Shown: positions 3,779-41,852 of the stretch, piece after piece | Numbering within the stretch: position 1 is the stretch's first letter | Layout of the letters: each line of letters begins with the position of its first letter | Assembly: GCA_964016885.1 (NCBI GenBank) | Contig: OZ024756.1 | Span: 35,092,001-35,156,000 of the forward strand | From: Eledone cirrhosa | Taxonomy: Eukaryota | Direction of reading: 5' to 3' | Length of the DNA stretch: 64,000 nucleotides | Program-made: the position numbers and the translations under genes | The notes under the pieces: model-generated | Seen by the model: the letters and a program-made list of their open reading frames with translations, nothing else | Database searches by the model: none | Told to the model about the DNA's origin: nothing

Positions 3779-4112
3779 GGGGCCAGACAAGACTAGATAA
3801 TAATAACCTTATTGTGTTTGGTTTCTTATTACAAGGGGCCAGACAAGACTAGATAATAATAACCTTATTGTGTTTGGTTTCTTATTACAAGGGGCCAGAC
3901 AAGACTAGATAATAATAACCTTATTGTGTTTGGTTTCTTATTACAAGGGGCCAGACAAGACTAGATAATAATAACCTTATTGTGTTTGGTTTCTTATTAC
4001 AAGGGGCCAGACAAGACTAGATAATAATAACCTTATTGTGTTTGGTTTCTTATTACAAGGGGCCAGACAAGACTAGATAATAATAACCTTATTGTGTTTG
4101 GTTTCTTATTAC
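3779..4112. repeat. 56-bp minisatellite, ~6 copies
   Basis: GGGGCCAGACAAGACTAGATAATAATAACCTTATTGTGTTTGGTTTCTTATTACAA repeated. Confidence 0.95.
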
Positions 4113-4329
4113 ACCGTTAGTAATGTAATATAATTGTTTCTACTTTAGGCACAAGGCCAGCAATTACCCAGTGCATTACTAGTACTTTATTTTATCGACC
4201 CCGTAAGGATGAAAGGCAAAGTCAACCTCGGCGGGATTTGAACTCAGATCGTAAAGGGACGTAACTATGCTGGAAAGCATGGCGTCCGACCCTCTACCGA
4301 TACTGCCAATCCACCGTTAGTAATGTAAT
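4112..4329 (-). mobile_element. tRNA-derived SINE with target-site duplication
   Basis: Minus strand has A-box TGGCAGTATCGG and B-box GAGTTCAAATC; direct repeat CACCGTTAGTAATGTAAT at 4112-4129 and 4312-4329. Related copies or fragments at ~5620-5808, 7450-7580, 10230-10380, 19660-19815, 21590-21950, 26565-26700, 42665-42715. Confidence 0.85.
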
Positions 4330-16400: not shown

Positions 16401-19400
16401 GTCAGCCAACCGGACACTGCCCACAACAGGACAACCCGTCTAACCCATGCTAGCGTGGAAGAACGGATGTAAAACGGTGGTGATGATGATATATAATTGT
16501 ATCTATATTTTTACTCCATCCCCCACACCAAGGATGAAAGGCAAGGTTATCTATGGTGTGATTTGAACTCATTATGATGATAATAACAATGAATAGACAA
16601 AACAGTGGATGGGTTGCCGCCTGTTAGGTACACTGTATTCCTATATGTCATAATATGTGACTAAAAAGGTTGGGACCAGGAAAAGTATCCACTTATAAAA
16701 CATTGCTTCAAAAAGGATTCCATGATAAGTAGGAATCACTGAACATTTATTTGCAATATTACAGATATTCTACAGATCAATACTATATATGTATTGATTG
16801 AATTCTGGGGTCATAGTGGTTAATGATCTTTTTACTGTAACATTTGACATTCTCCATACAAATAATTAATTTATACCTGTCACCATATACATGACATAAA
16901 CTACTGTATATGTGTGTGTGTGTGTGTGAGTTACAGCCCTTTATGTTCTGAGTTCAAATCCTGTCGAGGTTAGCTTTGCTTTTCATCCTGAACTTTACAG
17001 AGAAGTTAATGAAGGAATGCAACAAGTGGAGGGTGGGTGTGCTGGAAAATATGCATCCCATGCAAGTGTGGAAAAGTGGATGTAAAAAGGATGGCAGTGA
17101 TGAAGCCATGCCAAACAAAGGATCAAAAGACTCTTCAGTTTTGTGAAAGACATGACAATCTCCCTAGTGCTAGTATCACAATAAAATGCATCCAGTACAC
17201 TATGTAATGTAGTTGGTGTTAGGAAAGATATGCTATTGTATAACCCATGCCAAAACTGCAACATAAGTGAAAAAAGGGGAGGCCTTGATCCGTTTGAGAG
17301 ATCAGTAACTCTGATTAAGTACTGACTTGATCTGTGATGACAAATCCACCCCTTGCCAGCATGGAAAGTAGATGTAAAATAATGATAAATATTAACTCTG
17401 ATTAAGTACTGACTTGATCTGTGATGACAAATCCACCCCTGCCAGCATGGAAAGTAGATGTAAAATAATGATAAATATTAACTCTGATTAAGTACTGACT
17501 TGATCTGTGATGACAAATCCACCCCTTGCCAGCATGGAAAGTAGATGTAAAATAATGATAAATATTAACTCTGATTAAGTACTGACTTGATCTGTGATGA
17601 CAAATCCACCCCTGCCAGCATGGAAAGTAGATGTAAAATAATGATAAATATTAACTCTGATTAAGTACTGACTTGATCTGTGATGACAAATCCACCCCTT
17701 GCCAGCATGGAAAGTAGATGTAAAATAATGATAAATATTAACTCTGATTAAGTACTGACTTGATTTGTGATGACAAATCCACCCCTTGCCAGCATGGAAA
17801 GTAGATGTAAAATAATGATAAATATTAACTCTGATTAAGTACTGACTTGATTTGTGATGACAAATCCACCCCTTGCCAGCATGGAAAGTAGATGTAAAAT
17901 AATGATAAATATGATTAAAGCCAAACCATACAAAAACAATAGGATGAGAAAAATCACCTGATTCAGTTTGGGGTCATATCCCCCATTTACGTAACCAACA
18001 CATGGTTCACAAGCGATATGACGTCTCAGATTGATAGGACTGAAAATATAGGAAGAGATTAGTTTTATTTCTCATAGATTGAATAATAATGAAAATTGTG
18101 TACAGTGCTCAGGTGCACTACAACTCATCAAAGGTACATGAATAGTACATAGAATAATGTATAAATGCCAGGAAAGTAAATTGTGTATGAGTCATGATAT
18201 ACATACAGACACACACAAACATGCATGTGTCTGTATGGAAGGGGAATATCGGATGTAGTATTGGCGAATTTCAGGAGGCTTGGAAGTTATGAAAGATGCA
18301 GAGTCCAGTTTGTTGTAAACATTCAGACCATAACTCCAGTTTGAGGATACCTTCCTCTTTCTCTTCCCACCAGACTCAGAGATCCCTGCCCCACAAAGGG
18401 GTCATAGGCATTGGTCTTTTCTCACTGAGTAAGCAGTGGAAAAACAACAATATAAAAAAAAAACCTTTGACCTTGACCTGTTATTACAAATGGAGTCCAG
18501 TAGTTGAACAAATTAATTAATTAAATTATTAATGGAATTTACAGTGATAATAATGTTCATCTTACCAACCATGACTTTTCAAAGCTCTTAAAAGTAATTT
18601 CACCAATGGATCTAGTGGAAAGAGAAGAAAAACAAACTATTCTAAAAGTTGAAATGACAAACCCAGCTCTCGTGGTGGAACTAGTCCATGTTGGAAAGGA
18701 GGAATTTAGTAACATAACTAACTTTCCCATTATCAAGCTGCTGTTTTGGAACATAACTTAACAAAGGTCCTTATATAAAATCACCAGGGAAAGTTTTTAG
18801 GTAATTATAAACACTTTAAAACAAACTGTTTTTGAATCGTAGAACCAGGGGTGGTTTGGTGTTAAAAGGGTTAAATTTTGACAGATTTGAAGGTGAAATC
18901 AGTATACTTTCATAAATTTACAGTCATGTTATCAATTCTGAATTCCTAGTCATGTATCTACATGGAAAAATGGCATTAGATTATGTGTCCTTTCCCAAGG
19001 GCATTAGCGGATGACGTGAAGAGAGATGGTTTCGACTAAAAATCGAAACCATTACGTGGATTCAATTCTATAACATTCGTAATTCGTTTTACTACTACTA
19101 CTAGCACAGACTTTTATTTCACAGCTTTAGCTTCACATTATTCCAATCCTTGTTCTCCTAAACACTATCATTCCCTGTTGTAGTTTGTACGTTTTCTTTT
19201 TCCCCCTAATTTCTATTGATTTGTTTTGTTATGTAAATTGTATATATCTTAAGTATGGTCATTTGGTACACGGTAAGGGTAATTAGACTCATACCAAAAT
19301 AGAGATGAATATCTTCTGACTATCGATGCCTCCCAGATGAGTGTTTATACGTATTCATAATATTTTAATATTTTGGGATGGTCGTTTCGCCAACGTACAG

Positions 19401-30022: not shown

Positions 30023-33000
30023 CACACATATACACAAACACACAGGTGTGTAAGTCATACCTTTTCTCATGAATGAACCTACATGGAAAACCAGCCTGTA
30101 ACTAACTTATCTACTGGACATACAAAACCCCCAATTCAAAATACATGACACATTGTAAATGTGGCATGTGATATGAGAAGAACCCTTAACGCCTAACACA
30201 CTATTTCAATCTTGGTGGAGCCCATCCCCCTCTCCAGGTCATAACAAAACTGATTTGAGAAAGAGAGTGGGGGCAGGCATCCCCAATACTGGACTGGAAC
30301 TTTATCGACCTCAAAATTATGAAATTTGACCTCAGTGGAATTTGAACTAAGAGCACAGTGAGCTGGAACAAATAGCAAAGCATTCTAAATCTGATGCCTT
30401 AACAACTCTGCCAAACTGCTGCCTATGACGGATGTACACTGACCTTTTATTTTGGAGATGCTGAATCCAAGTCAATGTGGTAATCCTTTATAGTGCTTCT
30501 GATGATATATAGAATTTGATAATGTTTCATTACCTCTATATTTTACATCTTTAAACTAAATTGGGCATAACAAACATTAATTAAGTATAATTTGTTATAT
30601 TGAAACATTTGATCTGGCTGGATCCCCAAGCGTGTCCAGCCAAGCTCATGGACCTTATCCAACCATCTTGCTTGGGGTCTACCCTTAGGTCTACACCAGT
30701 TGGTTTTGCCCATAAAAATCAGTCCAGCGATTCTTTCCTGAGACATTCTAACCACATGTCTATAGTAAAGGAGCTGTGATCTCTCAATTCAGAGAAGTAG
30801 CAGCTCTACGTGGAGTGACTCTCTAATCTCTGAGCTACACACTATCAAGTAATGTTACTCCAAAGACCCTTCGAAGGAATCCCATTTCGGCTGCTTGTAT
30901 TCGTGATCGCATTTTCTTTAGCTTAGCTCAAGAAATATCCGATGAATACAATCAGTGGTAGGGACTGACTGATACATGACCACAACATAGTAATACAGAC
31001 TTTGCTATAAACCTCATCACAAAAACACTGACAAATATAACACTGGTACTTTTACCATTAACCCTTTTAATACCAAACTGCCTGAAACTGCTCCTACTTC
31101 TATGATATAAACTGTTTGTTTTATATTAAGTATTTATCATCATCATCATCATCTTCGTTTAACGTCTATCTTCCATGCTAGCATGGGTTAGACTAAAAAA
31201 ATACCTTCCATCATAATTTTATATAGGAACAGCAACATAATAATGAAAAATTTAATTATATCACTAGACCATTCTAAATTTGCAATTATTTTCAAAATTA
31301 TTCGAAAACGATAGGCAGTACATTTCAATAAATAAATAAAAGGGTTAATACTGAGTACTGTGGCAATAATAGAAACAATTATTAATAATTGTAGGGAGAT
31401 CATGTCTTACCTGTTGTTTGTGTCTTACCTGTTGAACAGTCTGCATTTTGAATTTCTCATCACTAAAGCCAGACTTTTGATTGGCGTGTTCTAACTGTTG
31501 TTGGAGAGGTAGAGCAGAACTGTGTGCTGTGTTCAGGTAACCTGCTAAAAGAAATAAAATTTTCAGTTCACATCTGTGCAGGCTCAGCTGGCCTCCAACG
31601 TGGTTAACATTTCGCACGCTCAAGGCGACATAAGGCACCAATAGAGTGATCTGCCCTTAATACATAATGCAGTGTCAAGGGAAACAATTCATAAAAACTT
31701 CCAGCGTGCTGAAGATTAACATTTTATAAGAGGGTTCTTGGGGTATTTTAAGGATAGTTTTATCACTGTCTAAGTGAGATGCAGGCCCTCGGCTCACCTG
31801 AGAGGTCAGTAATTCTGCTTATGTACTAACCTTGTTTGTTGACGACTCGTCAGAACCCTTGTTAGCAGGGAAAAATGGATATCAAATGATGATGATATAT
31901 AGATACATACACACACACATATACATACATATATACATCATAATCATTGCTTAACATCCACTTTCCTTGCTAGTAAGGGTTGGACAACACACACATATAC
32001 ATACACGTATATGCATACATATAAACATACACACACACACAAATATACATCATCATCATCATCATTTAACGTCTATCTTCCATGCTAGCATGGGTTATAT
32101 ATAAATGTATATATACATACATGCATACACACATTATAGATTTTCTGAAAACAGAGTAATTAATGTTATATAAATGTTAAGTTCCAATATATAGATATTA
32201 GCAAAGAGTACATATGTTTAGAGATACTCAACCACTTTACCAAATGTTACATGATAGACTGGTGATGTTAAGGCTGTATAACTCATATAAATATGTGGCT
32301 GAGTATTCCACAGATACGTCTACCCTAACATAATTTTCAAGGTTATTTAGTTTGACACAGTGCGTGACAAGGCTGTCTCTTTGGTACAATCCCTCTGATG
32401 GCCTTCCAAACAGTTTCCACCTACCCAATTACACTCCCAAAGCTTGCATAGAACTGAGTCTATGATATAAGACATTTATCTATGAAGCTGTACAGTTGGA
32501 TCAAAACTGAAATCTCATGATAGTAAAGTGAACTCCTTAACTATTTGGTTATACTGTGTTCACACATTAAAAGTATTACCTTTAGAATATTAGTTAAATT
32601 TTATTCTAATCTATATATATAAAACTGTGGTTGTCTGTCTGTCTATCGATTTTTGGCACACATCTCCTCTTAGAATCTCTCACGGAATTGCACCCAAATT
32701 GCTATACTTGTACATTGAGCCCTAGCGAAGACATCGGAAAAAAAAAATTTCAAATTGACCCACCCTATGTGACGAAATCGAATATAATGTATCGATTTTT
32801 GAGCGTAAGTGATCAGTTATTTCCCTTTGTTCTGTTTACATTGAGCGTCTGCGTGCAAAAATTAAAAAAATTACGCTGGCTTTCTCAGCGTTTAAAATGA
32901 CATTAACACAATAATTTTTACTTGAAAACAAGTCTATTTAAAGACTACGTAAAACAAGCAAATATTTCGTAAAAAAAAGCAAAAATTATATAAGTTTGAA

Positions 33001-36000
33001 ATTGGAATAAATGCTCTGAAATAGCGATATATATGTGAATATAGACATAGAATATTCGAAAATATTCTGTATGTTTATAATAAACATTTTGAAGACCTAA
33101 TCGCTATAGAATAGAATACGTCACGTATTACAATTAGATTCTCGATAAAAGCAAGGGAAGTAATCTACGCGTTTCATTCTTGTTAGAATTCATCAGGACT
33201 ACATATCCAGTGCTTTTATCGAGAATGACACAGCTAGAGACTTATAGAATACTTAGCTGTGTACAGGAACTGGTTTGAAAGAGCGGTTGCCGGTCCGGCA
33301 GAAATTAGAAATTGGAATAAATGCTCTGAAATAGCGATATATATGTGAATATAGACATAGAATATTCGAAAATATTCTGTATGTTTATAATAAACATTTT
33401 GAAGACCTAATCGCTATAGAATAGAATACGTCACGTATTACAATTAGATTCTCGATAAAAGCAAGGGAAGTAATCTACGCGTTTCATTCTTGTTAGAATT
33501 CATCAGGACTACATATCCAGTGCTTTTATCGAGAATGACACAGCTAGAGACTTATAGAATACTTAGCTGTGTACAGGAACTGGTTTGAAAGAGCGGTTGC
33601 CGGTCCGGCAGAAATTAGAAATTGGAATAAATGCTCTGAAATAGCGATATATATGTGAATATAGACATAGAATATTCGAAAATATTCTGTATGTTTATAA
33701 TAAACATTTTGAAGACCTAATCGCTATAGAATAGAATACGTCACGTATTACAATTAGATTCTCGATAAAAGCAAGGGAAGTAATCTACGCGTTTCATTCT
33801 TGTTAGAATTCATCAGGACTACATATCCAGTGCTTTTATCGAGAATGACACAGCTAGAGACTTATAGAATACTTAGCTGTGTACAGGAACTGGTTTGAAA
33901 GAGCGGTTGCCGGTCCGGCAGAAATTAGAAATTGGAATAAATGCTCTGAAATAGCGATATATATGTGAATATAGACATAGAATATTCGAAAATATTCTGT
34001 ATGTTTATAATAAACATTTTGAAGACCTAATCGCTATAGAATAGAATACGTCACGTATTACAATTAGATTCTCGATAAAAGCAAGGGAAGTAATCTACGC
34101 GTTTCATTCTTGTTAGAATTCATCAGGACTACATATCCAGTGCTTTTATCGAGAATGACACAGCTTTCAAACCAGTTCCTGTACACAGCTAAGTATTCTA
34201 TAAGTCTCTAGCTGTGTCATTCTCGATAAAAGCACTGGATATGTAGTCCTGATGAATTCTAACAAGAATGAAACGCGTAGATTACTTCCCTTGCTTTTAT
34301 CGAGAATCTAATTGTAATACGTGACGTATTCTATTCTATAGCGATTAGGTCTTCAAAATGTTTATTATAAACATACAGAATATTTTCGAATATTCTATGT
34401 CTATATTCACATATATATCGCTATTTCAGAGCATTTATTCCAATTTCTAATTTCTGCCGGACCGGCAACCGCTCTTTCAAACCAGTTCCTGTACACAGCT
34501 AAGTATTCTATAAGTCTCTAGCTGTGTCATTCTCGATAAAAGCACTGGATATGTAGTCCTGATGAATTCTAACAAGAATGAAACGCGTAGATTACTTCCC
34601 TTGCTTTTATCGAGAATCTAATTGTAATACGTGACGTATTCTATTCTATAGCGATTAGGTCTTCAAAATGTTTATTATAAACATACAGAATATTTTCGAA
34701 TATTCTATGTCTATATTCACATATATATCGCTATTTCAGAGCATTTATTCCAATTTCTAATTTCTGCCGGACCGGCAACCGCTCTTTCAAACCAGTTCCT
34801 GTACACAGCTAAGTATTCTATAAGTCTCTAGCTGTGTCATTCTCGATAAAAGCACTGGATATGTAGTCCTGATGAATTCTAACAAGAATGAAACGCGTAG
34901 ATTACTTCCCTTGCTTTTATCGAGAATCTAATTGTAATACGTGACGTATTCTATTCTATAGCGATTAGGTCTTCAAAATGTTTATTATAAACATACAGAA
35001 TATTTTCGAATATTCTATGTCTATATTCACATATATATCGCTATTTCAGAGCATTTATTCCAATTTCTAATTTCTGCCGGACCGGCAACCGCTCTTTCAA
35101 ACCAGTTCCTGTACACAGCTAAGTATTCTATAAGTCTCTAGCTGTGTCATTCTCGATAAAAGCACTGGATATGTAGTCCTGATGAATTCTAACAAGAATG
35201 AAACGCGTAGATTACTTCCCTTGCTTTTATCGAGAATCTAATTGTAATACGTGACGTATTCTATTCTATAGCGATTAGGTCTTCAAAATGTTTATTATAA
35301 ACATACAGAATATTTTCGAATATTCTATGTCTATATATAAGTTTATTTAAAATATATGTATCTGTAAATTTCGTTACGCGTGCAGTCAGTTTTATATATA
35401 TAGATGATAAACAATAATAACCTCTATGAGGTCACTAAACCTGCTAGAAACAGCAGCTAACTCTCCCTCATATCACACCACTCCTTACTGTCTTAAATTT
35501 AGAAAACACATATCCTCTATGAGGTTACTAAACCTGCTAGAAACAGCAGCTAACTCTCCCTCATATCACACCACTCCCTACTGTCTTAAATTTAGAAAAC
35601 ACATATCCTCTATGAGGTTACTAAACCTGCTAGAAACAGCAGCTAACTCTCCCTCATATCACACCCTTCCCTACTGTCTTAAATTTAGAAAACATATCTT
35701 CTATGAGGTCACTAAACCTGCTAGAAACAGCAGCTAACTCTCCCTCATATCACACCCCTCCCTACTGTCTTAAATTTAGAAAACATATCCTCTATGAGGT
35801 CACTAAACCTGCTAGAAACAGCAGCTAACTCTCCCCCATATCACACCCCTCTCTACTGTCTTAAATTTAGAAAACATATCTTCTATGAGGTCACTAAACC
35901 TGCTAGAAACAGCAGCTAACTCTCCCTCATATCACACCACTCCCTACTGTCTTAAATTTAGAAAACACATATCCTCTATGAGGTCACTAAACCTGCTAGA

Positions 36001-39000
36001 AACAACAGCTAACTCTCCCTCATATCACAACCCTCCCTACTGTCTTAAATTTAGAAAACACACAGACAACCATGCAGAACAACTCCATCGCAGCTCTGTG
36101 GTTCGGCTGGCATCGTCTACTCGCGTGTTGCGCAAGTACTGTGAAACAATAAATTTCAACACTTTTTTGCACAGAGATAATATCCATAGGCGAAACTACA
36201 ATTGTCACTGCTGGCGCAGCTCATGCTTCCAGGTCTGCAATTCATTCACTCAGTGCCTGGTAGACAAAAAAGTGCTGCAACCTAACTTTGGTAACTTAAT
36301 GACCCCGAGCAACGCCGGGCTTTAATGCTAGTTTCAGATAAAATAAAGAACAAGACTAAATTTGTCATGAAGGTTAACCTTTTTTGTATCAAACTGCTTG
36401 AAACTGTTCCTGCTTCTCTGATAAAAAAAACAACTTTATCTTTAAGTGTTTACATTTATCTAAAAACCTCCCAGCATAATTTTATACAAGAACCTTTATT
36501 AAGTTATGCTCGAAACATCAGTTTAATAATGAAAAAATTATGTTATTAACCCTTTAGCATTTACATTACTCTATATTTACTATTATATTTTCATGGTAAA
36601 GGCTTTACCTCACATAGTTATCTCACCTAATATTGGATCTATGAGATTTTTATATTATTTATTTTGAGAACAATACCTTAACGTTGGTATGAGTGGCCGG
36701 TTATGACCAGTTTGAACAGAAAGTGAGAGCATTCTGGCCCGGTATCGCCAGTTTAAATGCTAAAGGTTAAATCTCTCCAAATTCTTGATTATTTTCAAAA
36801 TTATTTGAAAATCATACACAGTGTCTTTCAGTAGAAATATGGTGATGTGATGAACAGGTTGATAATATCATTAAACAGAATATATCATTGAATAGAATAA
36901 ATTGTCATGCTCAAGAACACAACACGTGTCTTCACAATAAATATATTACGAGAGAATTTCCAGAGTGGATGTTGGTGATTCTAATTACAAGGGAAGTGCA
37001 AAGGGAAAGCTTAATAAGATAAATACATATCGAGAGAGATGTCTTGAGGAGGTAGAAGAGGCTAGAAGGAGGGTCGGCATCTCACCTTTGTATTCCCGTT
37101 CTCTTCCTTGGCGAGACGCTAATTCACAGGGAGGAGAAAAAGGGAGATAAACGGAAGAGTTTTAATTTCAACATTACATCACCACCAGCAACAACATAAG
37201 AAAATCAGCACCAAAAACAACAACAAAAACCCCAACATCACAGATAAAACAGCAACAACATTACAGATATGACAACAATATTATAACATCAGCCTGGACT
37301 ACCAGATGAAATCAGATTCTTTAGGCAGCTGAATGCTCATTTCAGGAAACTTTGAGATCTACCAATTGGAGAGTTGGATGCAATGCCCTAACTGGTTGTT
37401 TACCTGCATATTACACACACACACGTTGTTGTTATAGCTCGCACATGTAGGTTTAGCAGGCCTCCTATAAGGTTGCATCTCATAGCTTTCTTGGGTGCAG
37501 CCAGTCCTATCATGGAAAGACTTCCCCTTAAAACCAGACACCAGTCTGTTGCAGTGATTAACACCCAGCTTGTGTTCCTAGTACAGATTTCTTTTTTTCT
37601 CAGCAGAGTGAACTAGAGGTTTGTGAAATGAAGAGTCTTGCACAAGGATACAATGTGCCTCCCGGTCAGGGAATTGAACCTATGGTTATGATTGTGATTC
37701 CAACTCCCTAACCGACCAATGGAGATGGAAAGAAAAGGAAAAAAAAATGTAGTTTATCTTACTTGCTTGTGGCATCCGCTGTAGTTGGTAGTTATGTGGA
37801 TAAGATTCAGCTAATGGCTTCTGTTGTTGAGGATAATGACCAGGATACGATGTAAAAGCTGACTGTGAAGCCACTGTTGGGGTGGTGGTGTATTTAGTGG
37901 TGGGTGGACCAGCAGTGAATGGCACAGCTTGCTGCTGGTAAGCATGGCTACCTTGACTGGCGTATGCTACTTGAGGAGGTTGGTTCTGGCCATATGTTGT
38001 AGCTTCTGAATAAAATAAGGACAAAAAAAAGTAATAGACTGATAAATTAGTAATAGCACTAACACAGTGGGGTTCACAATAAAGACATAAGTATGCAGGT
38101 GGAGGTCTATGAGTGCTCTGTCCTCAGCCCATAACAGAAGAGTTTAAAACAGGTGGTCCATGGGAACTCCTATATGCTGATGACCTAGTCCTCTTATTGA
38201 ATCTGCAGTAGAATTAGAGAAGAAATTCCAGACAGAAGCAAAATTTGGAATCGAAAGGCTAAAGTCCTAGAAAGTAGAAAGGAAATCTGATTCCATCAGA
38301 GAAATGGCCTTGCTCAGTATGCAGAGAAGTAGTAGATAAAAATCCCATACTATGTCCTAAATGTAAACTAGGGGTACACAAAAGCTGTAACAGTATCTTA
38401 GCCAGGCTAGCAAAGAATGTAGGCTATGTATGTGGTTGATACTCAGGAGCAATAAGCAGCAAAACCTTACTATCAATTGCTTAGCGGACTCCTTAGAACT
38501 AGTTGACAGCTTCTGCTACTTGGATGACCATGCTTGTTTCATCTTGTAAGTGTCGAAAATAGATGTTAAAAGGTAATGATGATGGTGATACTTTCAGTAC
38601 TCCTAGTCAGATACTGCCTGAGACTAGTGACAGAGAGGGTGTTAGTGTCTATGGCACATTTTACAGAGTGGACTTTGCTAAAGTCACCTAAGTAAATAGT
38701 TCCTTCTACTTTAACCCTATCATGACCATATTTCTAATGAAATACATTCTATTTCAGTTTTAAGGGATTTACTAAAATTATTCATTATTACATTACTAAG
38801 ATAGTAACTTAACACATGGTTCTTATATAAAATTATTTTGGAAGATTTTTATTTAAAACGGGTTCGTTTTGGTTTATAGGACCAGAGGCAGTTTTGGCCA
38901 GGGTTGGTATAAAAACAACCATTACAACATGGAGTGTTGATGTAATATACTTACTGTACTCAGCTTGAGAAGGTGTATATACGACAGCTGGTTGTTTATT

Positions 39001-39633: not shown

Positions 39634-41852
39634 CAAGATTAAAAAAACAACAAAAACAGTCTTAATTTCATATTTGTGGGAAAAGGAAAACGAAAGTCTT
39701 AATGTATTGGATGTTAGTCTTTCATGAGGAATGAGTAAAGTTAGGAGAAAGAGAATGTTGAAAGGGTGAAGAGGGAGGAAAAAGATTTATAGGACGGATG
39801 CAGTGAGCAGGCAAGAAGTCATCCCTGAGCTAAAACCATAATAAAACAACAAAAACTAAACAGTTCACCTTTGTTCCTTCAACTGTGCTCTTCTTCTGGT
39901 TTCATCTTCCTGATGTAGTACTTTCTTCAGCTGAGAAAATAATTCATGTTTCTCATTCTTCAGAGATTCTTGCTTTGATTCCATCATACCAATCTGTAGA
40001 AATTGGAATACACAACTTTAAACATATTCATAACAAACTGCATGGACTTACACTACCTTTAGTTTTATGATACAAAGCTGTTCATTTCACATTTATTTAT
40101 CTTATTAGGCTTATGAATTCATGATCATGAGGACCTTGCTAAAGGCATTCAAAATCAAGACAGTGGTGCTAAACCAGGTGATGGATTAAGTCTCCTATCC
40201 AAATAGGGCCACTGCAGCATATTCATATATTTAGTATCTAGCTTAGCCCCTATGCAGTGAATTGGCAGAGTCATTAGAGCACTGTATTAAATGCCTTGGT
40301 ATTTGTTCTGGCACCCTATAATCTGTGTTTAAATCCCATTGAGGTCAACTTTGCTTTATATCCTTTCAGAGTTGATAAATAAAGTTCCAACTGAGGTCAG
40401 TGGATATGTGGAATTGTTAAAGTGTCGGATAGGATGTCTTGTAGAATCTGATCCAGTTCTATGTGTTCTGAGTTCAAATCCAACCTTCTGGAGCGGCAGA
40501 TAGCATCAGTAACGGAAAGATCAATCTGACAATCGGCTCCCTTTTTAACATCTATACTATAAATATTATAAACAATATTCAATAAATACAGGAAGAGAAT
40601 TTTACTAAATGCGTTTGTAAATATCATTTCATACCTGATCTTTTATTTGTTCAAGGGTTAAATTATCTTCTTCTTGTTTCTTTTTCTGCAGCTCTCGTTC
40701 TTTTTTTAACCGTTCAACTAAAGCATCGTGTTCTTGTTCTGATAAAACAACCAAAGGAGGAGAAAATAAAAGTAAACAGTTTACCATTTTACTGACATCA
40801 GGAACAAATGCAGGGATACAGTGTACCTATTCTAAACCAAATACACACAGGGATACAGTATATATATACTAAACTAGTTACACAAACATACACACAGCGA
40901 TACTGTGTACCTATTCTAAACTAGTAACACTCACATGGATACAGAATATATATACTAAACCAGTTACACACAGCGATACAGTGTACCTATTCTAAACTAG
41001 TAACACTCACATGGATACAGAATATATATACTAAACTAGTTACACACAGCGATACAGTGTACCTATTCTAAACTAGTAACACTCACGGGATACAGAATAT
41101 ATATACTAAACTAGTTACACATAGCAATACAGTGTACCTATTCTAAACTAGTAACACTCACATGGATACACAATATATATACTAAACTAGTTACACACAG
41201 CGATACTGTGTACCTATTCTAAACTAGTAACACTCACGGGATACAGAATATATATACTAAACTAGTTACACATAGCGATTCAGTGTACCTATTCTAAACT
41301 AGTAACACTCACATGGATACACAATATATATACTAAACTAGTTACACACAGCGATACAGTGTACCTATTCTAAACTAGTAACACTCACGGGATACAGAAT
41401 ATATATACTAAACTAGTTACACATAGCGATTCAGTGTACCTATTCTAAACTAGTAACACTCACATGGATACACAATATATATACTAAACTAGTTACACAC
41501 AGCGATACTGTGTACCTATTCTAAACTAGTAACACTCACGGGATACAGAATATATATACTAAACTAGTTACATACACATATACACAGCGATAGTGTACCT
41601 AGTCTAAACTAGTAACACACACAGACACAGTGTACCTATTCTAAACTAGGTACACAGCACATTTGGCAAGAGAAACTCAAATATACAAATTAAATAAAGG
41701 TGGTGTCTTAACATAGTCACAGTCAAATGGCTGAAACAGGCGAAGGAATAAAGATTACCTTGTTTTTTCTTCTCCCTTTCTCTCATAATGTGGCGCTTCA
41801 GAGCTTGATATGTGGCCACTGTCATCTTGGGACGATCAATTAGAACAGGCAT
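28248..41852 (-). CDS. GPS2: G protein pathway suppressor 2, 10 coding exons, ~403 aa
   Basis: Exons 41852-41759, 40738-40635, 39993-39869, 39483-39372, 39114-38955, 38005-37763, 31544-31429 (alt donor 31411; NAGNAG acceptor), 29651-29562, 28956-28867, 28325-28248 join in frame. N-terminus MPVLIDRPKMT..ALKRHIMREREKKKQE and EKHELFSQLKKVLHQED match the GPS2 coiled coil; the C-terminal half is Q/P/Y-rich, so those exons are less certain. Confidence 0.88.
30610..30915 (-). mobile_element. Degenerate RTE LINE fragment
   Basis: RSRIQAAEMGFLRRV..HVVRMSQERIA..RPKGRPQARWLD. Confidence 0.75.
33160..34132 (-). ncRNA. Four type I hammerhead ribozyme motifs (33160-33202, 33470-33512, 33780-33822, 34090-34132)
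   Basis: Minus strand reads GUAGUC-CUGAUGA-AUUCU(AACA)AGAAU-GAAA-CGCG-UA-GAUUAC: full core, stems I and II, palindromic minimal stem III, GUA cleavage triplet. Confidence 0.85.
34243..35215 (+). ncRNA. Four type I hammerhead ribozyme motifs (34243-34285, 34553-34595, 34863-34905, 35173-35215)
   Basis: gtagtc CTGATGA attct aaca agaat GAAA cgcg TA gattac in each inverted unit. Confidence 0.85.
35424..36061. repeat. 91-93-bp minisatellite, 7 copies
   Basis: CTATGAGG unit starts at 35424, 35517, 35610, 35701, 35792, 35883, 35976. Confidence 0.95.
38060..38590 (+). mobile_element. Degenerate RTE LINE RT fragment
   Basis: PWELLYADDL and KWPCSVC remnants similar to 15140-15650, with frameshifts. 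Confidence 0.8.
40815..41650. repeat. ~75-76-bp minisatellite built from two ~38-bp subunits, ~10 copies
   Basis: GATACAGTGTACCTATTCTAAACTAGTAACAC and GATACAGAATATATATACTAAACTAGTTACAC alternate. Confidence 0.9.

Follow-up and report, generated by a model that had tools for sequence, protein, structure and literature searches.

Back-to-back arrays of a putative retrozyme in an octopod genome, read from a palindromic insertion in a GPS2 intron

A palindrome packed with hammerhead ribozymes lies inside an intron of GPS2 in the window, the whole 64,000-nt stretch of Eledone cirrhosa DNA that was analysed. The locus raises the question of whether such a structure serves the gene that holds it or is simply what a mobile element leaves behind wherever it inserts. 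The architecture given in a preliminary description is confirmed: two arms of 1127 bp (33039-34165 and 34210-35336), each the exact reverse complement of the other, flank a 44-bp spacer, with 2 nt of CT microhomology at the inversion junction. Within each arm a 310-bp unit (GC about 0.34) is repeated perfectly in tandem, 3.8 times, and the arms are 100% identical. The placement in GPS2 is equally sound. Between 41852 and 28251, two octopod GPS2 proteins map by tblastn to the minus strand as eleven exons in order; the element falls in the 5.5-kb intron at 31542-37084, which has GT/AG ends. For one exon the nearest relative, 98% identical, is labelled Octopus sinensis GPS2.

31430..31541, minus strand: GPS2 exon downstream of the host intron (tblastn)
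37085..37118, minus strand: GPS2 exon upstream of the host intron; the tblastn match is weak (E=0.19) yet lies in order and has a GT donor
32998..34165, minus strand: left arm, 3.8 tandem retrozyme units that read ribozyme-sense on the minus (GPS2) strand; its start, at unit position about 284, is the 'tail' (T) site
32998..33038, minus strand: 41-bp tail beyond the palindrome, where the left arm alone continues outward in unit sequence
34164..35336, plus strand: right arm, also of 3.8 tandem units but with the ribozyme sense on the plus strand; at its outer end it stops at unit position 240-243, the 'short' (S) site
34164..34209, plus strand: inversion junction, with its CT microhomology at 34164-34165, and the 44-bp spacer, part of the right arm

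The contig of run X4 matches only the downstream GPS2 exon, at depth 27, with the intron near-empty. This pattern is as expected of spliced mRNA, X4 not being recorded as RNA and coming from an animal that may lack the insertion. The same exon is followed by a duplicated splice donor (31411-31429), and the X4 contig matches as far as 31411, which suggests that the second donor is used in GPS2 splicing. Young tandem arrays are also present in the window at 3779-4113, 17306-17912 and 40889-41576 (units of 56, 87 and 76 bp; 93-100% matches), the last of them within the first coding intron of GPS2.

The boundaries of the insertion are set by the repeat in which it is nested.

32610..36331, plus strand: host repeat split by the insertion; Helitron-like non-autonomous element, multi-copy, young
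32987..32997, plus strand: target-site duplication, left copy (TATATAAGTTT), from comparison with empty sites
35334..35344, plus strand: target-site duplication, right copy (TATATAAGTTT), from comparison with empty sites

The host repeat starts with TC after a flanking A, ends with a GC hairpin and then CTAG before a flanking T, and contains a 93-bp tandem array at 35417-36062. Non-autonomous Helitrons have a TC start after A, a subterminal hairpin, a CTAG end before T, no target duplication and many copies, and on these end motifs and criteria we take the repeat at 32610-36331 to be Helitron-like. From 1,359 candidate copies, 40 were scored and 11 other copies retrieved, some of the copies sitting in tandem. 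The 5' end is the same in all 11 and the 3' end in 10, with 99-100% identity across the 248 bp compared. All 11 retain the empty site, in which TATATAAGTTT occurs once and uninterrupted. Since the window carries it twice, the real insertion spans 32998-35333 and is bracketed by an 11-bp target duplication; and since it starts at 32998, the left arm has 41 extra unit bases beyond the palindrome. The S-site end of the right arm shares a 3-nt microhomology (TAT) with the target. For its family this copy has atypical ends (unit positions 243 and about 284) and a target that is not (TA)n. It is pure 310-bp unit sequence, with neither an RT nor a GIY-YIG ORF. Nested as it is inside a repeat 99-100% identical to other copies, the palindrome must be younger than its host, and judged by its sequence it is a very young insertion. 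Two candidate assignments were rejected: the 310-bp unit is not a Helitron 3' end with its GC hairpin, as the unit is bounded by a target duplication of its own and it is the host that is Helitron-like, and Rfam miRNA matches in the palindrome are explained by its perfect hairpin.

Assemblies are prone to error at perfect palindromes, and both junctions are read from the assembly. An assembly or long-read chimera would not, however, yield an 11-bp target duplication that matches an empty site, nor a one-sided tail, nor would it explain 81 other insertions whose ends follow one rule and whose junctions differ (below); an artefact is thus extremely improbable. Over 31300-33300, where runs X1, X4, X19 and X20 were compared, contigs of run X1 leave the left junction (32997) uncovered, in coverage holes that prove nothing, and the RAD runs, in which the unique flank is almost uncovered, are uninformative either way.

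The four hammerheads per strand noticed at the outset were recovered as hammerhead-like matches to Rfam Hammerhead_HH9 whose 23 bits (E=0.015) fall short of the gathering score, 52, and the Rfam search of the palindrome gave no match at the gathering level. The CUGAUGA...GAAA...GUA core is intact and joined to an extended stem I (fold z=-4.7), and core motif and stems are present in all 8 copies.

33146-33211, 33456-33521, 33766-33831 and 34076-34141, minus strand: four type I hammerheads (Rfam match and motif)
A at 33166, 33476, 33786 and 34096, minus strand: predicted cleavage after GUA (read from the sequence)
34234-34299, 34544-34609, 34854-34919 and 35164-35229, plus strand: four type I hammerheads (Rfam match and motif)
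After 34279, 34589, 34899 and 35209, plus strand: predicted cleavage (read from the sequence)

Each hammerhead consists of a stem I (GUAGUC/GAUUAC) with a long extension, a 4-bp stem II and a minimal helix III made of palindromic CGCG. The helix III CGCG dimer duplex has a computed energy of -9.5 kcal/mol, and so short a palindromic helix suggests that cleavage may depend on a dimer. Among Xenopus retrozyme-type elements, 8 of 9 showed no cleavage in vitro (10.64898/2026.07.22.740005, in part). The circular 310-nt monomer is predicted to fold well (z=-5.6 against 60 shuffles), and the commonest haplotype has U-U at the base of helix II. None of the fixed variants listed falls in the invariant ribozyme core; the sites are too few to give power, and since the core was required for the haplotype table, that table is circular as a test of core selection. 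Contigs of the unit occur in X4, RNA-like by its exon-limited coverage; contigs cannot show circles, strand or level. By its testable features the 310-bp unit would be classed as a non-LTR retrozyme; the insertions retrieved consist of unit sequence from end to end, with no LTR/PBS/PPT organisation or ORF.

Is the palindrome peculiar to GPS2? The genome contains 3,912 exact copies of a 35-nt hammerhead motif. Twelve loci were chosen by this motif alone, from its first 100 matches; 10 are two-armed with the arms facing outward, 2 are single-armed and none faces inward. The outer ends are stereotyped, with one arm ending at unit position about 255 (S), within ATATAT sequence matching the (TA)n target, and the other at 281-288 (T). 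Genome-wide, end motifs joined to (TA)n number 1,308 for the short end and 1,010 for the tail end. On contig C1 (0-201.6 Mb), a short end in outward geometry lies no more than 16 kb from 58 of the 74 tail ends, where the chance of such a partner is about 0.004 per tail end, and all 58 outward pairs combine a short with a tail end. Ninety-five insertions were then read, drawn from most C1 pairs and from the ends left unpaired (8 of 16 tail, 20 of 42 short); this set is enriched for pairs by choice, comes from one contig apart from the window copy and contains a duplicated pair (L056). Of the 95, 82 are two-armed, 13 single-armed and none inward-facing. Even among ends that had seemed unpaired, 5 of the 8 tail ends and 12 of the 20 short ends belonged to two-armed insertions. 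An S and a T end were paired in 81 of the 82, the remaining one being incomplete at the edge of the retrieved sequence, and in every fully read case (81/81) one arm ends at S and the other 26-33 nt further on. With about 83% of the 1,308 short ends as the basis, two-armed insertions in the genome are estimated at about 1,100. The target is (TA)n at most loci, and two non-(TA)n sites carry duplications of 11 and 12 bp. The back-to-back palindrome is the normal form of this retrozyme family, not a GPS2 device.

Other structures were met on the way. L056 holds two copies of one insertion, 2.75 kb apart and identical at the junction, through local or assembly duplication. Many other inverted repeats of 0.4-1.1 kb formed from unrelated repeats were seen (L178, L180, L211, L215 and L217), which suggests that palindromic insertions are common in the octopod genome.

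The arms preserve a record of how an insertion is copied. Most are longer than one unit (144/160), and the longest reaches 14 kb. Wherever both arms exceed 400 bp they have their fixed variants in common (62/62 loci, 24 haplotypes), so that each insertion represents one template lineage with a one-unit bottleneck. Inner ends are not clustered at the cleavage site (3/162 within 5 nt, 5.7 expected); arms that cross many ribozyme sites and do not end at one fit either a circle or an uncleaved RNA. Microhomology of at least 2 nt is found at 27 of 42 junctions without filler, against 18% expected, a count that omits 27 of 69 junctions scored as inserts, some of the long 'inserts' being artefacts of nearby variants. 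At one locus (L031) the arms are separated by a complex junction of four segments (minus, plus, minus, plus).

The simplest route to a palindrome would be fold-back or self-priming, with one arm a DNA copy of the other, and for rotifer Penelope elements self-priming on an antisense template has been proposed to explain head-to-head repeats (PMC3846280, in part). The haplotype common to both arms would follow from such copying, as would the near-equal arms in the GPS2 intron and the two loci at which single variants are mirrored in the outermost turn of both arms. The details of the ends and lengths say otherwise. The spacer of the GPS2-intron copy belongs to the right arm, yet its left arm has 41 unit bases past the right-arm end, and across the family the tail is always one-armed. 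The S arm is longer in 35 of 80 complete insertions, and when the gap exceeds one unit, S exceeds T in 23 and T exceeds S in 31; because either arm can be much the longer, one is not regularly a copy of the other. Arm lengths are weakly correlated (rho 0.25), and 42 single variants are not mirrored. As a general route simple fold-back is largely refuted, and we hold it to be very unlikely; it would account for a near-symmetric minority at most. Such a class does exist, as T exceeds S by 10-45 nt at 6 of 80 loci against 0.96 expected (p=0.00015), and the GPS2-intron copy lies near it. A minority of insertions may stem from linear multimers, fold-back or later symmetrisation.

The palindrome is quite probably the recent insertion of a non-autonomous, Penelope-dependent retrozyme, in which both target strands primed on one, mostly circular monomer, RNA. 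The biochemistry of PAc, the Penelope protein of an anole, offers a model. PAc, modelled as a dimer, nicks and extends both strands of AT-rich DNA and does not require ribozyme cleavage, and the genomic tail is defined by its two start sites (PMC11167929, in part). By analogy with known retrozymes, transcription of an array and hammerhead cleavage would yield 310-nt monomers that circularise. A Penelope-like RT/GIY-YIG protein, probably a dimer, would bind one such RNA, and both strands of an AT-rich target would be nicked about 11 bp apart, the spacing preserved in the target duplication. Each nick would prime reverse transcription, one at the S site through TA microhomology and the other at the T site 26-33 nt downstream; the two ends are found paired, and their role as starts of reverse transcription is suggested by what PAc does. 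Reverse transcriptase would circle the template several times to give arms of largely independent length and one haplotype, as observed, and the two cDNA ends would be joined through the microhomology or short filler seen at the junctions. The enzyme, the order of steps and the circular template are what we infer; the product would always be a back-to-back palindrome, antisense first on either strand.

Alternatively, the same family and enzyme may use a linear, uncleaved read-through transcript (or a multimeric circle), followed by unequal exchange. Unprocessed RNA is the main substrate of PAc in vitro (PMC11167929, in part), and local tandem expansion has been proposed for retrozymes in the sections of a preprint drawn on here (10.64898/2026.07.22.740005). 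A linear or multimeric template would account for the near-symmetric excess (6/80), the two mirrored variants and the arrays with 7- and 27-unit periods. It fares less well with the 24 haplotypes fixed in all units of both arms and with the few mosaic arrays (6 loci listed), which together would call for a one-unit bottleneck and then expansion at each insertion, and unequal exchange would not preserve both arms along with both defined ends. We consider this alternative rather unlikely as the general explanation, and prefer twin priming on a circular monomer. Several individual arrays do not fit a pure monomer circle. Variants recur with a 27-unit period in L064+L065 (45 units) and a 7-unit period in L051+L052 (19 units), which suggests multimeric templates or later duplication. 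At L098 the tail arm switches after four turns to the haplotype of the short arm, as if two templates had been used.

A Penelope partner for the retrozyme was sought in the same genome, which holds many RT + GIY-YIG elements. No autonomous element with a unit-homologous pLTR was found among 30+14 GIY-YIG and 30+7 sibling-family loci, with 150 of 10,595 GIY-YIG candidates scored. Unit-like sequence near GIY-YIG matches (L136, L165/L179) was set aside as a sign of the partner, as it belongs to separate insertions of sibling families. These sibling retrozymes are 65-75% identical to the unit, give 1,037 tail-end matches and have the same outward geometry in most of 30 loci. Their tail region is conserved (L136 2432-2866, L179 8832-9210, L181-L210), and in two loci the units measure 322-324 bp. 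At L211 6370-7900 (contig C1 about 22,609,400-22,610,900), between (TA)n runs, a two-armed structure has the 3' end of a GIY-YIG Penelope, with a hammerhead-like motif of its own, as left arm and a sibling retrozyme as right arm. Two RNAs may have given rise to it as a chimeric insertion, which would make it a lead to the autonomous partner, or it may be the result of two nested events. Long open RT or RT+GIY-YIG frames of 844-1096 codons, stop to stop, occur at L165 4309-7122 (minus strand), L166 2488-5019 and L167 1775-5062 and are candidate intact Penelope-like elements, the first of them flanked by 1.07-kb direct repeats. Other Penelope fragments are adjoined by short palindromic pieces that are hammerhead-like and related to the unit (L177 5716-5808, L174 7591-7687).

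What would the palindrome do in a transcript? As had been noticed, the antisense arm is read before the ribozyme-sense arm on either strand. Twin priming makes this a rule, since it leaves the ribozyme sense pointing outward, so that any crossing transcript reads antisense first. The proposal that the earlier arm pairs with the ribozymes holds in silico, where this pairing is the minimum-energy fold; the arrangement is not specific to GPS2, being the normal geometry of the family. As the GPS2-strand transcript grows, 20 of 21, then 46 of 46 and then 55 of 55 core bases are predicted to pair with the antisense arm, in folds that represent equilibrium, not kinetics. Sequestration of the ribozymes by the antisense arm is plausible on this modelling. 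Across the family, 54 of 160 arm orientations would leave over one unit without a pairing partner. In GPS2 pre-mRNA a long hairpin would most likely hold the ribozymes and be spliced out, as a by-product of insertion rather than an evolved switch. The further suggestion, a toggle between cleavage and duplex, is not upheld: a 300-bp piece of the duplex alone amounts to -537 kcal/mol, the copy is young, and paired arms are at least as long at 22 of 80 loci, which together make a toggle unlikely.

A switch evolved in GPS2 to toggle ribozyme cleavage against duplex formation and editing would suit an intronic site in a conserved gene, near-equal arms that give all four sense ribozymes partners, and an animal group with exceptional hyper-editing (octopus; PMC5625713, in part). 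Selection for such a device is hard to square with zero divergence within and between arms, a position nested in a young repeat, identical geometry at about a thousand loci, paired arms equally long or longer at those 22 of 80 loci and a duplex far too stable for toggling, and we regard it as highly improbable. The passages of PMC3365414 consulted contain nothing on intronic ribozymes. Editing of the hairpin is another matter. Hyper-editing/ADAR substrates are usually long perfect or near-perfect duplexes, octopus combines an exceptionally high editing rate with duplex potential, and a lizard Penelope is heavily edited (PMC5625713, in part). On these general grounds the hairpin is likely to be edited. 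X4 shows no A-to-G or T-to-C excess over 31300-33300, a stretch that excludes the central junction and is not evidence either way. A bolder extension can be offered tentatively, with rather less than even confidence: a Penelope RT dimer would prime both target strands on a single circular ribozyme RNA and roll round it, with a fixed division of labour between an S and a T subunit; each insertion would be a perfect palindrome of kilobase scale that silences its own ribozymes in host transcripts, so that a self-cleaving element could be tolerated in introns; and the family with its siblings would be a significant source of the double-stranded RNA behind octopus hyper-editing.

The importance of these results for GPS2 itself is low. 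About a thousand near-identical, ORF-free insertions, each with two defined ends and one haplotype, constitute a genome-scale readout of integration, and they tie the two start sites of PAc in vitro to the two target strands. Circle-templated twin priming becomes directly testable, and editing and small RNA in octopus gain a concrete class of long perfect hairpins. The literature covered, with supplements and most subscription papers outside its scope, yielded no palindromic retrozyme arrays or octopus retrozyme, and no Penelope twin priming or one-short-one-tail rule. The structure type, with an inverted copy, one-sided tail, microsatellite bias and target duplication, is already described for Penelope (PMC8557442, PMC3846280, both in part). 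The origin of tandem and inverted Penelope-like structures is called undefined in the part of PMC8557442 drawn on here, and mobilisation of animal retrozymes is left open in the corresponding part of the preprint (10.64898/2026.07.22.740005).

Metazoan non-LTR retrozymes resemble the octopod family in their tandem, low-GC, non-coding units of 170-400 bp, each with a type I hammerhead, their thousands of copies, self-paired monomer and proposed Penelope-like dependence (excerpts of PMC7229834 and 10.64898/2026.07.22.740005). The helix II U-U of the commonest octopod haplotype is also that of axolotl HHR_Amex2 (same sources). As described there, known retrozymes form head-to-tail arrays, whereas the octopod family mostly forms back-to-back arrays with S and T ends. 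Octopod arrays also appear to be born as arrays, in contrast to the local growth proposed for known retrozymes (10.64898/2026.07.22.740005, in part).

EN+ Penelope-like elements (Penelope/Poseidon, Neptune, Naiad) share a head-to-head inverted, 5'-truncated copy, a one-sided tail of 30-40 bp, microsatellite or AT-rich targets, target duplications of about 8-12 bp and a hammerhead about 110-165 nt upstream of the end sites (PMC8557442, PMC3846280, PMC11167929, each in part). The 41-bp tail in the GPS2 intron is the equivalent of the Penelope tail (PMC8557442, in part). That tail is optional or often one-sided in the same three Penelope papers, as far as their excerpts go, and is on exactly one arm in 81 of 81 octopod insertions. 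Unlike Penelope, the octopod family has no ORF, and both of its arms are multi-unit, so that the inverted repeat reaches kilobases. In L1 twin priming, a second priming from the other target strand gives an inversion joined by microhomology and flanked by a target duplication, and its two non-complementary segments derive from separate stretches of a single linear RNA. In the octopod family, by contrast, a repeated or circular template would make the two segments a perfect palindrome, and inversion is the rule.
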